Shown: positions 4,804 to 54,738 of the stretch, in pieces
Position numbering within the stretch: the stretch's first letter is position 1
Layout: each line of letters begins with the position of its first letter
Origin: a virus
IMG/VR virus record: IMGVR_UViG_3300043424_000108
Coordinates: 17,370 to 81,369 of that record
Reading direction: 5' to 3' (one strand)
DNA: 64,000 bases
The notes under the pieces: model-generated
Told to the model about the DNA's origin: nothing
Database searches by the model: none
The model's input: only the letters and a program-made list of their open reading frames with translations
Translations under genes and position numbers: made by a program

Positions 4804-5230
4804 AGTTTACATTCCTGCATCTTTATCTCTTAATATAGATGGCACTGTACATCTTAAAGGAGATAGAGAACTAATGCAGTCTTATTTTAGAGAACTTATG
4901 AAACAGGACCCCAAAGTAGATGTAGAGATTTGTATTACACGAATCGACTCAAAGAAAACAAACCCTCAATTGGCTTATTTTTACAGTACCCTAGTACCTA
5001 TCATCCGAGGAGGATTTGAGTCGCTTACGGGGGAAGTATACACCAAAGAAGACGTAGTTGCTTTCCTTAAGGACAAGTATTTCTACGAGGAGATTATGTT
5101 TCAGGGACAATTTATCAAAACTCCTCTTTCACTTTCTAAGGGAAAGAAGGAAGAAGTCCATAAGTTTATCCAAGATGTTATTACCTTTGCAAGAGAAATC
5201 CTGGGAGTGGAAGTACCAGAACTAAGTTAG
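4793..5230 (+). CDS. NinB/Orf-like recombination protein
   Basis: KKTNPQLAYFY...V..FLK..Y...SLS...E...FIQ.V..FA.E.LGVEVP pattern. Confidence 0.65.
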   Translation: MINRVYIPASLSLNIDGTVHLKGDRELMQSYFRELMKQDPKVDVEICITRIDSKKTNPQLAYFYSTLVPIIRGGFESLTGEVYTKEDVVAFLKDKYFYEEIMFQGQFIKTPLSLSKGKKEEVHKFIQDVITFAREILGVEVPELS

Positions 5231-5235
5231 AAATT

Positions 5236-5508
5236 ATGTTATACATTATAGAACCAAGAACAGAAACAAACAAAGTGGAAGCCGTGGGCTTTCCTGGAAT
5301 TAGCCACTACTATGGTGAGAATTCAGTTACTTACAAAGACGAAAAAGGAGACAAAGGAGAAATTACAGTCTCTATAGGGTCTATCGTTAATTGTAATGGA
5401 ACTCCTGGAGTAGTCACAGAAGTTGTTACTATGAAGTTTGGAAGAGTTATCCTAACAGTTAAGTTAGATCATACTCCTAAAACTACTACAGGAGCTTTAA
5501 TGCGTTGA
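5236..5508 (+). CDS. Hypothetical protein
   Basis: 90-aa ORF in a tightly packed operon. Confidence 0.6.
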   Translation: MLYIIEPRTETNKVEAVGFPGISHYYGENSVTYKDEKGDKGEITVSIGSIVNCNGTPGVVTEVVTMKFGRVILTVKLDHTPKTTTGALMR

Positions 5509-5510
5509 TT

Positions 5511-6491
5511 ATGGCAAATGATTTCCCCGCTATGGAAGATTACAACGAGGGCACACAAGCACTTCGTTTTAACAAAGGCAAAGCACATTGGTCTCTAGTA
5601 GATTTTAAGTCTCTAGAGCCAATGGTGGAAGTCTTAGAGTTTGGAGCAAAGAAATATTCCTTGACAAATAAATTGGATATACTATCTTTGTTACAGTTAT
5701 GCCTAAAATCGGAATTTGTAACAACTGTGAAGATAGTAGACCAATTATCTCACGAGGACTTTGTAGTACCTGTTACAGAAAAGCTACGGAAAATTATGGT
5801 ACCTGCACAAGGTGTTCGGAACATAGACCTGTTAATAAAAAATCTATGTGTAGAGCCTGTGCTGAGTACGTCAGAGTGCACAGCTCTAATGAGTATACTA
5901 CCAAAGTCAGAGAATACCAAGCAAACTACAGAAAAAGAGAAGACTTCCGAGAGCAAGAACGAGTTAGATCGGCTAACAGAAGAAGTAATCCAGAGTATTT
6001 ACTTAGGAAAAAAAGATCAGACTTCTTACGAAGACTTTCCAACTATGGAATTACTGAGGAGTTTTATCTCTCTGAGTGCAAAAAAGGCTGTCAAATTTGC
6101 GGAAATAAAGAAAGATTACACATTGACCATGATCATACAACAAGAAAATACAGAGGTATTTTGTGTGGTAAATGCAACAACGCCCTTGGCTTGTTTGACG
6201 ACAATGTTAAAATTATTGCAAAAGCAATCTCTTATTTGCAAAAAAATAACAGTCAGTAACGGTGTATATACCGAATCTGGAAAAAACAATTGGAAAAAAG
6301 GAATGCCAGTAAGCGAAGTAGTTGAAAGCATGCTTAGACATACATTCAGTTTGTTGTCAGGTGAGTCTCACGATAAGGAGTCTTTGATTCACCATATAGG
6401 ACACATACAATGTAACGCTATGTTTATTGCTTACATCCTCAGAGAGAAGCCTGAATTTAATGACTTAACAGATGAAGGTAAAGTTCAGTAA
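5511..6491 (+). CDS. DUF5664 dATP/dGTP diphosphohydrolase-like protein carrying a ~207-codon in-frame insertion
   Basis: RFNKGK..WSLV...LE....VLEFGAKKY then GKNNWKKG......S.LRH.......E..D.ES...H..H..CNAMF; the two halves are separated by unrelated sequence. Confidence 0.85.
   Translation: MANDFPAMEDYNEGTQALRFNKGKAHWSLVDFKSLEPMVEVLEFGAKKYSLTNKLDILSLLQLCLKSEFVTTVKIVDQLSHEDFVVPVTEKLRKIMVPAQGVRNIDLLIKNLCVEPVLSTSECTALMSILPKSENTKQTTEKEKTSESKNELDRLTEEVIQSIYLGKKDQTSYEDFPTMELLRSFISLSAKKAVKFAEIKKDYTLTMIIQQENTEVFCVVNATTPLACLTTMLKLLQKQSLICKKITVSNGVYTESGKNNWKKGMPVSEVVESMLRHTFSLLSGESHDKESLIHHIGHIQCNAMFIAYILREKPEFNDLTDEGKVQ
5661..5690 (+). promoter_or_regulatory. Internal Bacteroidota-type promoter for the nested endonuclease
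   Basis: TTG(ACA) at 5661, 19-nt spacer, TATCTTTG at 5683-5690, ATG at 5699. Confidence 0.75.
5699..6259 (+). CDS. Endonuclease VII-family (His-Me) homing endonuclease, nested out of frame
   Basis: YGIT...CQICG...LHIDHDH.T.K.RGILCGKCNNALGLFDD...AISYL; N-terminal CxxC repeats. Confidence 0.9.
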   Translation: MPKIGICNNCEDSRPIISRGLCSTCYRKATENYGTCTRCSEHRPVNKKSMCRACAEYVRVHSSNEYTTKVREYQANYRKREDFREQERVRSANRRSNPEYLLRKKRSDFLRRLSNYGITEEFYLSECKKGCQICGNKERLHIDHDHTTRKYRGILCGKCNNALGLFDDNVKIIAKAISYLQKNNSQ

Positions 6492-6645
6492 CTTCTTTAG
6501 AGGAAAACAAGGACAACGAGATTATCCTTATTGGTTTTTTTACACAATCCCTACACTAACCTTTAGCAGAACACACTCTAAACAAAAGTTCAGTGTTCAC
6601 TTAGGGTTTTTGTGGTTTAATTTAACTTTAACAATAAACAAATGA
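6472..6645 (+). CDS. Small aromatic-rich hypothetical protein (57 aa; not in ORF track)
   Basis: MKVKFSNFFRG...LGFLWFNLTLTINK fills the gap; ATGA overlap with the gene at 6642. Confidence 0.55.
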   Translation: MKVKFSNFFRGKQGQRDYPYWFFYTIPTLTFSRTHSKQKFSVHLGFLWFNLTLTINK

Positions 6646-7610
6646 TTTTAGATCAAGGATACTTAGACAGTACAGCACAGAGTCAGAGCAGACTTAAAAA
6701 GCTATTGCAACACCCAAACCTTTATTATAATTATGACCCTAGCTCCGATACAGATGAGCCAGCAGAAGTAACTCTAATAGGTGATGGAGTTGATTTAATC
6801 TTAACTCAAGGAGAAGAAGTATTCAGATCAGAGTTCCACATCAGTAGTGTAGAAAGACCTACAGGACAAATGGGAGACTTTGTATGGCATCTTTATACTA
6901 ACCGAAATGATAGTATGGCTGAGACTATTGCGTATGAAGCAGCAAAGTTTAAGCGAGATACTCTCCCTAAGGTAAGAGAAAGATTCGCAATAGAAGGTAA
7001 GACCTATTACGAAGATTTGATTGCAGCAGAAGGAAAGAAAGTAATCTCTTTTGCCCAAGAAGCTCTGATCATTAATATCGCAGAAGGACTCAAGTCACAT
7101 GCCTTCACTTCTAAGTTTGTAAAAGGTAACTCACAGTACAAAGTATTTACCCAACAAGCTTTAAGCTTTGAGTATTTAGGAGTACAGTGTAAAGGTTTAC
7201 TAGATCTAGTAGTTGTTGATGTAGTAAACAACATTCTTTATCCTATCGACTTGAAGACTACTACTACTTCCTTAAATTTTTGGACAGATACTCTTATGAA
7301 GTATCGCTATGACTTTCAAGGAGCATTCTACACAGAAGCTTTGAAGCAAACAGACCTCAGTATCTATGGAGAAAATCTAACAGTTAACAACTTTAGATTC
7401 ATTGTAGAAAGCCAGAAGTTCCCAGGTAGTCCTTTAATCTATGAGCTGTCAGATGAAGCCATGGCTATAGGTAAGATGGGTGGAACTTTCCAAGGTAAGA
7501 CCTACGAGGGTTTTCACCAAGCTATTGAGAGACTTATGTGGCACTCAGAAAACGATTTGTGGGCATACACTAAAGAAGACTACGAGAATGACGGCATCAG
7601 AGTTATCTAA
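6642..7610 (+). CDS. PD-(D/E)XK exonuclease (RecE/Exo VIII-like)
   Basis: SQSRLK, KGLLDLVVVD...PIDLKTT, YRYDFQGAFY, FRFIV. Confidence 0.8.
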   Translation: MILDQGYLDSTAQSQSRLKKLLQHPNLYYNYDPSSDTDEPAEVTLIGDGVDLILTQGEEVFRSEFHISSVERPTGQMGDFVWHLYTNRNDSMAETIAYEAAKFKRDTLPKVRERFAIEGKTYYEDLIAAEGKKVISFAQEALIINIAEGLKSHAFTSKFVKGNSQYKVFTQQALSFEYLGVQCKGLLDLVVVDVVNNILYPIDLKTTTTSLNFWTDTLMKYRYDFQGAFYTEALKQTDLSIYGENLTVNNFRFIVESQKFPGSPLIYELSDEAMAIGKMGGTFQGKTYEGFHQAIERLMWHSENDLWAYTKEDYENDGIRVI

Positions 7611-11069: not shown

Positions 11070-11429
11070 TTAAAATATTAACCCTATGGTTAACAAAGCT
11101 ATAGCAATTAATCCGCCTTTCAAAACATTCTTCAATGTTTTTATAGTTTCTGCTTGAGATTTAACCTTAGTATCCAAGCGAACTATCTCTACCTTAGCTG
11201 TATCTAGGGCCTTTTGGTAGTTGGGAACTATAGAATCTTTATAATAATGTAGTTGGAGACTGTCTGCTTTGACAATCTTCTTTAGACTAACTACTCTTTC
11301 ACGTGCTTGAATTCCTTTTATGAACTCATTATTCAACTCCTTTAGCGGTAAGCTGTCTAGAGATTGTGAGTAGATACTTTGTGCCGTCAATGTCAGGCAT
11401 AGTGTCAATAGCAATCTGAATTGTGTCAT
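11070..11429 (-). CDS. Exported coiled-coil protein with C-terminal hydrophobic anchor (spanin-like)
   Basis: N-terminal signal-like segment, heptad region, GGLIAIALLTIGLIF tail; overlaps the upstream gene by 101 nt. Confidence 0.5.
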   Translation of the reverse strand: MTQFRLLLTLCLTLTAQSIYSQSLDSLPLKELNNEFIKGIQARERVVSLKKIVKADSLQLHYYKDSIVPNYQKALDTAKVEIVRLDTKVKSQAETIKTLKNVLKGGLIAIALLTIGLIF

Positions 11430-12433: not shown

Positions 12434-12463
12434 CAAAAATACTTTTATTTAAAATAAAGTCAA
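12434..12463 (-). promoter_or_regulatory. Bacteroidota-type promoter for the lysis cluster
   Basis: TTG(AC)-N19-TATTTTTG on the - strand. Confidence 0.7.
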
Positions 12464-15400: not shown

Positions 15401-18400
15401 CTTTTGCTAAGTCTGCTTTCTTGCTAGCGAGCATCTTCTCGAATACAGCCCTACTATCATCAGTGAGAACAAAGTTCATGACTTCAGCATTTCTCTTTGT
15501 TTCTTTCCACTTTTGAATAGCAATAGCATCTTCGTATGCTTTACCTGTTTTCAGTTCTCCAGCCTCATCGTAGATTCTTTCTAGCTCGTAGATTTCTTTC
15601 TCTTTCTCTTTAAGTCTCTCGATTGTATGTTCGTCTATCTCTCCAGTACCAAACTCTTCTCTGATAGCACCAATTTCTTGATAGATTCTGTTTCTTTTTT
15701 CTTTTACGTCATCTGGTAACAGCTTTTGAATAGCATAATACTCATCTGTAAAAGGACGCTCTGTATACTCTTCGTAAAACTTCTTAAGATCCTCTTCTGC
15801 TTTATTTCTTATCTCCTCTGTCTCACCATACTCTACAAGATAATTAAGTTCAGTAGCCCTGTTTCTAAGTTCGATTGTCTTAATCTTTGTATTAAGGGAT
15901 ATAACTTTCTTGTCTTTTACAAGTTTGCCATCTATTACTTCATACAGTACAGTCTCTCGAATAAAAGGCTTATAGAAGTTTTTAGTATCCATAGCAGAAC
16001 CAAAGAAACTTCCTTCTGATGCCGCAATGTCATCCATAAGATCTTGCCAATCTCTTGCAATAGGCTTTAAGTTCTCTTGAAACTCGTTATTAATACCTCT
16101 AATATAGTTAGCAATAATCTGTACGCTAGGAGTCTTTGTAGACATTGCTGACTCCCAAGCAAGATACCAAGGAGAGTTAGGATCAGCTAAGAACTTTTTA
16201 ATATTCTCGGGAGTAGGAATACTCTCTGCCTTTTCTTTTTCTAACTCCGCAATTCTTTTTGCAATAGCAGGAGTTTGTGTACGAGACTTAAGTTTAGCAA
16301 TATCAGAATCAAACTGAGCTGCAATATCTACTGCTTGTTGAGATAGACTATCTGCTAATTCATTAAATACAGGAGCCTGTATATTAGTTGCATGATCTTC
16401 TTTAATAGTGTTGATAGCAGTTTTAATCCAAGAAAGATTCTTTAAGAAAGCGTCTTTCTGAACTTCTGCCCTATACATTTTCTTAAGGACACTAGTGTCA
16501 AATAAAGATTCAATCTTTTTAACATGCTTCTCGATAGCTAAAGCTTGCTTATAGGTTCTATGAAGATCCCCTAACTTCTTACCTGAAGGTATATTAGGAT
16601 CATTCAAAATGTTATCTAAGTGACGAATCAGTCCCTGTAGATAAATAGAATTGTATTCAAGATAATCAGCCAACTCTAGAACAGATGCAGCTACATCTTC
16701 TTTTGTTAGTATGTTCTTTACCTGCTTAATAGCATCTAGAGATCTTTGTAGGGACTCATTTCCTAAGCCAAGAAATCTATTGGTATCTAAGATCTTTTTA
16801 AACTCAGAGTCACTAATAGCTGAAGCAATTTTTTGAATCTTCTCTGCATAGGTTTGGAATTCAAACTGTCCACCAGGAGTAGTTACTACATACTGAGTCA
16901 AAGCATCTACTTGATCTTGAGGAACTATACGTTGGAACATATAGTCTTCGATTGCAGAGTTTGTAGGAATCACCTCAAACAAGTTAGAGGGATTAACAAG
17001 AGACTCCACTAAATTAGACATATTACTAATAGGAGTAACTCCTACTTTAAATGATCTAAGCAAAGACTTAAACCAATCAAAGACTTTATCAAACAAACTT
17101 CTATTAGCTTTAGTAACCGCTTGTCTACCTAACTCAGTTACAATAACCTCTTCCCAGAAAGATTCGCTTCCTACATAATCAGGATAAGCGTCTTCTACAA
17201 AAGAGTAAGCAGATGATGTGGGGGATTCTTCGTGTAATCTTTTTACCTCAGCCTTAAGCTGTTCAAATAACTCAGGATTAGATTCTCTAATACCTCTAAC
17301 TACAAAGTGTCCAAATTCATGCCAAGGGGTATCTTCCTGAATAAGTTCAGGATTAAGTTCAATCTCTCCTGTAGATAAGTTAACTCTAGCGGCCTCTGCA
17401 ATTTCGTTGTTCCACTTCCAAGTTACTCCAGGGAATCTAGAAGCAAGTTTATCTAACACCTGTCCATAAGCTTTTATCTTAGGATCTTTAAGTGCTTGTT
17501 TTAAACTAAAGTTCTTTTGGAACATTAATCCATTCAAAGGAAGTACTTCTCCATCAATCAAAAGTTCATTTGCTGATTGGAGTTTTTCCATAATAGCTGC
17601 TTTTTCTTTTCCTAGATTCTCTTGGATCTCAAACAACTCCATTTCAGTTCTCATAGACTCTTCTTCTAGAGTCTCAACTGCTTGTAGGAAAGGAATAGTA
17701 TAACTACCATTCAAGTCAAATTCAATTAAAGTCTGTCCATCAGACAACTCTCTTACGTATGCAGGAGGATTAGAGTATGCTAAAGGAAACATTGCATTGA
17801 TGTTTTCTTTTAATCTAACTGCGTAGTTATAAAGTGCACCAGGAGATTTAACTCTCTTTGTCTCAGAAAGATAAATTTTGTTTCCTTCTACTCGAACAGA
17901 GTCAAGACCTTGAATAGCTGGAAGTATTTCTTGGAAGTGTTTAGAAGCTACGTAACGCTTCTTCTCTTCCATTGACATGTTCCAGTACTCTGGACTAGTT
18001 TGAATGCCTCTAACAAAGTCGTATTGTCTTTCTAAACGAATAAATCTATCAGATACAAACTTTGCATCCTTCCTACTAAACATAGTAGTAGGCATTACAT
18101 TACTAGCTACAAACTTTTTAAATCCTGCTATGTCTTGTTTGTTTCCTAGTATGTGAACTTGTTCATCTTGATTTACAATGTAAATAGTTTTTTCACCAGC
18201 ATCATTATTTGTTAAGACAGTATCAAACTCTTGAGTATTAGTTAAATAGTTATTAAGTTCTTTTAGTTTACTTTCTTTTATATGCTCTGTTAATGGTTCC
18301 CAACCAGAATTGCGTTCAGAAAATTCAGTGGCTTCTGCTAAAGTAGGAAATACTTCTATTTCTACCACTTCGCCTATAAATTCTAACGCAAACTTTGAAT

Positions 18401-35758: not shown

Positions 35759-35788
35759 CAAATATACAAGATTAATAAAAAAAAGCAA
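35759..35788 (-). promoter_or_regulatory. Bacteroidota-type promoter
   Basis: TTG-N19-TATATTTG on the - strand. Confidence 0.7.
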
Positions 35789-45474: not shown

Positions 45475-45505
45475 CAAATATAATTTAATTTTAAAGTTAA
45501 GTCAA
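45475..45505 (-). promoter_or_regulatory. Bacteroidota-type promoter
   Basis: TTG(ACT)-N20-TATATTTG. Confidence 0.7.
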
Positions 45506-54708: not shown

Positions 54709-54738
54709 CAAAAGTAATATTTTAAAAAATTAACACAA
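54709..54738 (-). promoter_or_regulatory. Bacteroidota-type promoter for scaffold/MCP
   Basis: TTG-N19-TACTTTTG. Confidence 0.65.

Follow-up and report, generated by a model that had tools for sequence, protein, structure and literature searches.

Homing endonuclease genes were believed to survive within essential or useful genes only by residing in self-splicing introns or inteins. A third way was proposed in the report of the ShiLan domain, a hidden out-of-frame HNH endonuclease within an unspliced, in-frame insertion in actinophage DNA methylases: the element stays in the protein and keeps the host frame open (Arsenault, Gosselin, Gogarten 2025, Genes 16:178, PMC11855218). Here, we analyse a 64,000-nucleotide (nt) stretch of the IMG/VR virus record IMGVR_UViG_3300043424_000108 (positions 17,370 to 81,369; herein the window, to which all coordinates refer unless a locus is named), in which a gene for an endonuclease VII-type nuclease lies out of frame inside an in-frame insertion in a gene for a MazZ/MazG-like dATP/dGTP diphosphohydrolase (herein the host gene). 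The locus adds an independent case with another nuclease family, another host gene and another phage group, and the analogy with ShiLan that a first-pass annotation of the window had drawn proves correct.

The two elements are alike in several respects (PMC11855218). Both insertions are absent from close relatives, contain no host-frame stop and carry no intron or intein signature; in both, the open reading frame (ORF) of a His-Me-finger nuclease occupies the third frame and fills nearly the whole insertion, starting a few tens of nucleotides inside it and stopping just before its end; and for both, the predicted in-frame product is either unstructured or looped out and leaderless or short-leader translation is proposed. 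The elements differ in nuclease (HNH versus PF02945 endonuclease VII, families compared here by Pfam placement), in host gene (methylase versus dATP/dGTP diphosphohydrolase), in carriers (temperate mycobacteriophages versus uncultivated freshwater phages, one of them crAss-like) and in nuclease start (GTG versus an ATG with a promoter-like site in its leader). Beyond that report, we add a nuclease-anchored sample that is unbiased with respect to frame openness, a statistical test of frame openness by codon shuffling, estimates of selection for each frame, both alleles in one sample and start signals borne by the element. We conclude that the window's element is of the same kind as the ShiLan element, and that it differs from it in nuclease family, host gene and phage group.

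Overlapping-frame nucleases are also described inside inteins. Actinophage inteins with an out-of-frame endonuclease VII (bioRxiv 10.1101/2025.01.02.630785) resemble the window in having an endonuclease VII-like nuclease in frame 3 relative to the host and an overlap translation without recognisable structure, but there a Hint/intein domain flanks and removes the overlap, whereas no Hint domain was found by Pfam in the window's host ORF, which leaves no known means of taking the passenger out. A cyanobacterial dnaX intein with an out-of-frame LAGLIDADG homing endonuclease (bioRxiv 10.64898/2026.09.14.751524) shares with the window an overlapping-frame nuclease under purifying selection, a relaxed host-frame overlap and the presence of filled and empty alleles in one population; it differs in being an intein, in its nuclease family and in its location in a cellular genome. 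Finally, F-CphI of cyanophage S-PM2 (Mob DNA 2018, PMC6083498) uses the Endo VII catalytic motif and illustrates that proteins with this motif can serve phages as homing endonucleases; F-CphI is free-standing between genes rather than overprinted inside a host ORF. No report of the combination of a diphosphohydrolase with endonuclease VII was found in the literature searched.

The Insertion and Its Nested Nuclease Gene

The host ORF (328 amino acids [aa] counted from a TTG at 5505, or 326 aa from the ATG at 5511, the more likely start given that the homologue P0001 begins there with MANDF...) matches PF18909 (dGTP_diPhyd_N) in two separate stretches (74.8 bits against a Pfam cut-off of 27), and both halves of the domain are there. 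It also matches phrog_801 in PHROGs, and its homologues in named phages (tblastn against phage records) are annotated as dATP/dGTP pyrophosphohydrolases. The insertion splits the loop between the motifs GAKKY and NWKKG of this gene. Two IMG/VR loci (L004 and L005; L-numbers herein denote such loci) encode a 121-aa insert-less protein whose sequence is about 97–100% identical to the host parts of the window, and they fix the boundaries: collinearity with them holds as far as ...AAATAT (5657) and resumes at AATTGG (6288), the window having a net excess of exactly 621 nt, and the right boundary is fuzzy by 9 nt (6278–6287) because the three following codons differ from those of the empty allele. 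The first-pass annotation had described precisely such an insertion, with a complete 186-aa endonuclease VII in another frame, and the insert-less alleles bear it out in its exact length. The insert comprises 41 nt before the nuclease ATG, the 186-aa ORF and 19 nt after its TAA.

The first position of each nuclease codon is the third position of a host codon (5699 - 5505 = 194 = 3 x 64 + 2). The nested ORF matches PF02945 (Endonuclease_7) at 58.1 bits, well above the Pfam cut-off of 23.6, and phrog_2914 at 3.5e-24 (PHROGs); the nearest solved chain is that of Hpy99I (7.7e-6). Two N-terminal CxxC...CxxC fingers precede a C-terminal catalytic core, and the residues H141, D143, H144, H146, N160, C131, C134, C156 and C159 are invariant in four sequences and visible in all nine alleles compared (a set that omits L002, which is 99% identical to L162). 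On the basis of the fold, we take these His/Asp/Asn and Cys residues to be catalytic or zinc-binding.

Selection for an Open Host Frame

Over the nuclease ORF of the window, the host frame contains no stop codon and the third frame contains 26. Resampling the nuclease codons from the codon usage of the window's long ORFs gave a mean of 5.84 host-frame stops and a probability of none, P(0), of 1.5e-4, whereas permuting the nuclease's own synonymous codons gave a mean of 2.3 and P(0) = 0.029; in the long ORFs themselves, such stops occur at 7.9 per 100 codons. All ten insert-bearing contigs with available DNA (the window, L001, L002, L162, L041, L082, L083, L085, L097 and L114) have an intact nuclease and not a single host-frame stop. 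Under permutation, P(0) across the nine alleles ranges from 0.0003 to 0.31, with a product of 10^-16.7 if the alleles are treated as independent.

Protein searches favour long ORFs, a bias that is avoided by two scans anchored on the nuclease, which together returned 132 loci with a profile match. Among these, 24 are nested and eight fall in neither class (a short ORF segment at the profile hit, or an ORF of <100 aa). The nuclease lies inside a split diphosphohydrolase gene at nine nuclease-anchored loci, all nine with zero host-frame stops, and since five of the nine insert-bearing contigs other than the window came from the nuclease-anchored search, these were not selected for an open host frame. 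In contrast, the non-nested homologues with GC content <0.5 and an ORF of at least 100 aa (n = 64) have 4–25 stops in the corresponding frame, with a median of 10. One candidate, L188, was rejected as a nested locus: its profile match began within a short segment of ORF, and the diphosphohydrolase gene of this locus is a separate one without an insert, 1.2 kb downstream.

These comparisons indicate that the host frame is kept open by selection and that chance does not explain it. If selection keeps the frame open, then ribosomes pass through the insert, which argues against removal at the RNA level and against ribosomal bypass. The first-pass annotation had proposed that a homing element leaves its host gene unharmed by means of an open frame, and had named as checks whether homologous inserts are free of stops and whether a synonymous shuffle makes openness unlikely by chance; both checks support the proposal, as do the empty alleles, the lack of a Hint or intron match and the discordant insert and host identities described below. 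Among the routes that it had listed, the tolerated loop is favoured, and it is RNA-level removal and ribosomal bypass that the selected open frame speaks against.

Table 1. Features of the host gene and its insertion (window coordinates)
Feature	Position	Strand	Basis or remark
Host gene, MazZ/MazG-like dATP/dGTP diphosphohydrolase	5505..6491	+	ORF list and PF18909
N-terminal host part, ending ...VLEFGAKKY	5505..5657	+	Runs collinear with the empty alleles (L004, L005) as far as 5657
Mobile insertion, 621 nt = 207 codons, no host-frame stops	5658..6278	+	Absent from L004, L005, L006, L009 and L017
Promoter-like site in 41-nt leader, TTGACA-16-TATCTT (5661-5688), also TTG-N19-TAnnTTTG	5661..5690	+	Sigma-70-like score
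Endonuclease VII-type (His-Me finger) homing endonuclease gene, 186 aa, ATG start	5699..6259	+	PF02945, phrog_2914
Three loop codons GGA AAA AAC = GKN	6279..6287	+	Empty allele: GCA CCA AAT = APN (L004)
C-terminal host part, NWKKGMP... to stop codon	6288..6491	+	Nucleotides nearly identical to L004 and L005

Constraint on the Two Frames

Over the shared nucleotides, it is the nuclease frame that is selected as protein. The ratio of nonsynonymous to synonymous substitution rates (dN/dS; Nei-Gojobori, three least saturated pairs) of the nuclease is 0.19–0.31; in 36 of 36 pairs among the nine alleles, amino-acid identity is higher in the nuclease frame than in the host frame (for example, 64% versus 47% and 43% versus 24%), and in the same 36 pairs nucleotide conservation by nuclease codon position follows the order position 2 > position 1 > position 3. 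The host-frame translation of the insert is poorly conserved, at 15–49% where the nuclease is at 34–65%. These patterns mark the nuclease frame as the selected protein frame, the nuclease as a working protein, and the passenger peptide, which must stay free of stops, as mostly a by-product.

The host parts (exteins) are constrained as well. Ten of their residues are invariant in an alignment of 59 sequences, 17 of which carry the insert, and extein dN/dS is 0.10–0.22 (same method, three least saturated allele pairs), indicating that the host parts are still under purifying selection in insert-bearing lineages; from this constraint we infer that the loop-bearing enzyme is active.

A Permissive Loop with Filled and Empty Alleles

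An IMG/VR scan anchored on the exteins yielded 80 loci, of which a motif script matched 79. The spacing from KY to NW is exactly three codons at 68 of these 79 loci and 96–102 nt at seven (L024, L057, L059, L062, L064, L076 and L079); it reaches 630 nt in L001/L003 and in L002, and the other insertions tolerated at this loop measure 32–145 residues. KY-xxx-NW is thus, across these loci, a naturally variable and permissive three-residue loop. At L042:2599-3034, a 435-nt in-frame insert occupies the same loop with no nested ORF of at least 60 aa, and Pfam finds only PF18909 there.

A search limited to proteins of 180–574 aa found 21 database proteins (P-numbers) with a 163–214-residue insert at the loop, down to 32% identity. 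All alleles have inserts whose length is divisible by three. The first loop residue, which follows the insert where there is one, is Gly in 22/22 insert-bearing proteins and in only 5/68 empty alleles, and the Gly, always present after the insert yet rare in empty alleles, therefore travels with the insert. Among deposited phages, a nucleotide search of 5200–6700 (blastn, 'distant') against GenBank phages gave no match, and tblastn of the 328-aa ORF against phage records matched 34 records, none of which covered at least 80% of the query; at that sensitivity, then, the insert is absent from the deposited phages of that collection.

Within single freshwater metagenomes, filled and empty alleles occur side by side. 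DNA run X5 contains the filled form as a 699-nt contig across both insert junctions (depth 24.5) and the empty form as a 78-nt contig (depth 48.2) in which the five letters of the empty allele link 5657 to 6284, and DNA run X8 contains an insert-bearing contig plus loose ends resembling a second empty-allele type. Additionally, insert and host identities are discordant: the proteins P0002 and P0003 are 62% identical in their host parts and 96% identical in their inserts, whereas P0003 and P0012 are 87% identical in their host parts and 32% identical in their inserts. Together with the empty alleles, this discordance is the pattern expected of a homing element. Extein and nuclease identities correlate across the 36 allele pairs (Pearson 0.84, Spearman 0.69), and their co-variation, which extends to pairs with about 30% identity, suggests long co-residence.

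Putative Start Signals Carried by the Insert

The site TTGACA-16-TATCTT, wholly inside the insert leader, is the best sigma-70-like site of 5400–6700 (10/12), and the promoter-like sequence ends 8 nt upstream of the nuclease ATG. A site so close to the start codon implies that the nuclease transcript would have a very short leader. The same stretch fits TTG-N19-TAnnTTTG, which we take to be the Bacteroides-type promoter consensus; with spacers of N18-20, the window has 11 copies of this motif where 4.2 would be expected, and five of these copies are intergenic and lie 20–63 nt upstream of long ORF starts. These five, all on the - strand with N19 or N20 spacers (54709-54738, 45475-45505, 35759-35788, 12434-12463 and 11094-11123), are candidate promoters of the phage or its host type.

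Other alleles carry comparable signals. TTGACA...TATCTTTG is kept in L001 and L162 and TATCTTTG in L083, the leader of L097 holds a perfect TTGACA-17-TATAAT, and in L114 the place is taken by AAGGAGGTG, five nt upstream of the nuclease ATG. The element thus seems, from its leaders, to bring start signals suited to its host. A programmed frameshift that would fuse the N-extein to the nuclease was considered and rejected, as all alleles retain an ATG for the nuclease together with start signals upstream of it.

A Probable Read-Through Homing Element and Its Alternatives

We hypothesize, with a probability of roughly 0.7, that the insertion is an unspliced homing element, read through in the host frame. 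A cassette made up of a leader with a promoter-like site, the endonuclease VII gene and a short tail would occupy the permissive loop; the nuclease would be translated from an ATG of its own, probably off a transcript that begins inside the cassette and has a very short leader, and would cut insert-free copies of the gene during co-infection, upon which recombinational repair would copy the cassette into the cut allele (homing). The cassette's codons would be chosen so as to avoid stops in the host frame, which lies one base ahead of the nuclease frame, and ribosomes would read the N-terminal host part, the 207 passenger codons and the C-terminal host part in succession to yield a 326-aa enzyme bearing a 207-residue, mostly disordered loop. 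We infer the cleavage of the empty site by the nuclease and the start of transcription in the leader, as we do the activity of the loop-bearing enzyme. Loops of such kind would mark sites that tolerate insertions of about 200 residues. Gene callers, which annotate such genes as one long 'hypothetical protein', miss the nuclease.

Neither a ribozyme nor a Hint domain was found, and with the codons open the host gene would be spared without splicing. No intron family was detected in Rfam at E ≤10 over 5000–7000 on both strands, where seven weak matches at chance level (E 0.42–8.1) were returned; although a ribozyme of a new class may escape the Rfam models, the non-coding part of the insert (41 + 19 nt) is below the typical non-coding RNA core of group I or group II introns, which takes about 200 nt or more beside an ORF. 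In Pfam, no Hint, intein or protease family was found at E ≤0.01, the host ORF matching PF18909 alone, whereas the positive control (PF14890, Intein_splicing) was recovered in the terminases of L189, L194, L198 and L202, where it flanks the overlap on either side (1e-16 to 1e-20). The insert's host-frame end (...VYTES) lacks the terminal His-Asn, and the +1 residue is Gly instead of Cys, Ser or Thr. The earlier observations that intein hallmarks are absent and that a group I or II ribozyme would have too little room are therefore sustained.

An AlphaFold2 model of the 326-aa protein, built with a 59-sequence alignment, is consistent with a looped-out passenger. The host parts are modelled at a predicted local distance difference test score (pLDDT) of 83–98 (84–97 for residues 21–50) and insert residues 69–176 and 185–200 at <50, so that most of the insert is predicted to be disordered. 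Structural comparison supplied no relative: the empty-allele protein had no sequence match in the PDB at E ≤1, and a Foldseek search of the 326-aa model against the PDB returned nothing at E ≤0.001. The best VIA-align match, over the host parts (2p06_B, Z 6.0, 83 aligned residues, root-mean-square deviation 5.1), lies below the tool's caution level, as do dsRBD/HPF-like rows over model residues 51–243 (Z 5.0–5.8), and we draw no fold conclusion from them.

Several observations weigh against the read-through homing element. The permutation test on the window alone gives just P = 0.029, and P(0) is 0.11–0.31 for the three alleles L162, L085 and L097. Among the 21 database proteins, the 180–574 aa limit of the search favours open frames. 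The RNA runs X19 and X20 (0.04 of words each) contain no contig over 5677–6264 and offer no test of splicing or expression, and the single RNA contig that crosses the insertion site carries the empty-allele letters. Insert residues 201–255, the host-frame reading of the nuclease catalytic core, are modelled at pLDDT 62–83, which may mean that part of the insert is folded or may be an artefact of conservation in the nuclease frame. Nuclease dS (0.59–0.94) is lower than extein dS (1.15–2.7) in the three least saturated pairs, which fits either extra constraint from the overlap or a more recent insertion, and in the latter case the argument from co-divergence would be weaker. Finally, repeated re-invasion of functional alleles could mimic the constraint seen on the host parts.

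The main rival, which we regard as improbable yet worth serious consideration, accepts that the insert is read through but holds that the host enzyme is dead or dispensable. The open frame would then serve to avoid polarity or premature termination affecting downstream genes (the PDDEXK-like gene at 6642–7610) or to stabilise the nuclease mRNA, or would be that of a recent invader that has not yet decayed. The coexistence of empty and filled alleles fits a gene under weak pressure, and a 207-residue disordered loop would separate invariant motifs that stand three residues apart at 68 of the 79 loci; however, the low dN/dS of the insert-bearing host parts, with all invariant residues kept, speaks against a dead enzyme, the nuclease and extein identities co-vary, and the same loop tolerates other insertions of 32–145 residues.

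A considerably less likely possibility is that the passenger residues are removed or skipped by a novel route, such as non-Hint protein splicing, proteolysis followed by re-ligation, or ribosomal bypass over a very long range. In most alleles the first residue of the insert is Ser or Thr, and in all 22 proteins a Gly comes after the insert, a fixed junction that could be a processing site; the boldest version is that the passenger may be removed from the protein after translation by a non-Hint route. Against this stand the absence of any Hint, intein or protease family in the Pfam search, the lack of a terminal His-Asn, a +1 Gly that is not a nucleophile, and an insert that is mostly disordered in the model and poorly conserved in the host frame; bypass, for its part, needs no open frame.

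A self-splicing intron (group I, group II or a new ribozyme) filled by the nuclease ORF, with an incidentally open frame, is very improbable: group I introns are a common home of phage homing endonuclease genes and the insertion is precise and mobile, but only 41 + 19 nt lie outside the ORF, Rfam recovers no intron family there, every insert comprises a whole number of codons, and splicing would free an intron from the selection that separates the ten open alleles from free-standing homologues.

Related Overprinted and Neighbouring Loci

Endonuclease VII genes also lie out of frame, in the window's phase, within ORFs of up to about 800 aa at 15 metagenomic IMG/VR loci matched by the window's nuclease profile (L189, L192-L199, L201, L202, L208, L209, L211 and L212). 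Terminase large-subunit sequence is present in the translations of L189, L194, L198, L201, L202, L208 and L212, Intein_splicing was found in all four tested, and in those terminase ORFs the nuclease sits where an intein's endonuclease domain normally is. It is this layout that bioRxiv 10.1101/2025.01.02.630785 describes from actinophages. L200:1189-1746 has a terminase-intein layout like that of L194-L199 with two stops in the host (+1) frame, and may be a decaying allele or an assembly error. A different host-sparing layout occurs at L084:287-1293 and L086:58-1161, where a related endonuclease VII gene lies beside the same enzyme gene: a complete diphosphohydrolase gene of ~102 aa with its stop is followed by a free-standing nuclease (11–14 stops in the +1 frame) and a diverged second copy of the C-terminal part. 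This order suggests that the cassette supplied a new 3' end in place of the original.

It is possible, though we put this forward only tentatively, that one endonuclease VII lineage has specialised in 'frame-3 overprinting', with start signals adapted to its hosts, in inteins or in bare permissive loops. If so, the start signals would be a Bacteroidota-type or sigma-70 promoter or a Shine-Dalgarno site, the intein form would be spliced out and the loop form would stay, and intein-free read-through would be an evolutionary alternative to splicing that is widespread in uncultivated phages.

Genomic Context

The full record is an 81,369-nt virus contig with a single endonuclease VII gene and with ORFs of 2146 and 4262 aa. 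Among named phages, its DNA polymerase is nearest to those of crAss-like phages: IAS virus, cr108_1 and crAss001 (37–41%) and Leptolyngbya phage Lbo-JY46 (48%). Public runs that contain the record are mostly freshwater metagenomes, and on the basis of these similarities and sources we assign the carrier to the freshwater crAss-like phages.

Downstream, a small hydrophobic ORF of 57 aa (6472-6645, +) overlaps the end of the host gene. Its counterpart is kept in a related phage (L001:3759-3950; ..RGQRDYPYWFFY.. versus ..RGQRGYPFWFFY..), and it may be a real gene for a small membrane protein. The next gene (6642-7610, +) encodes a PDDEXK-like protein (PF12684, DUF3799, 5.4e-11) and occupies the same position in L001.

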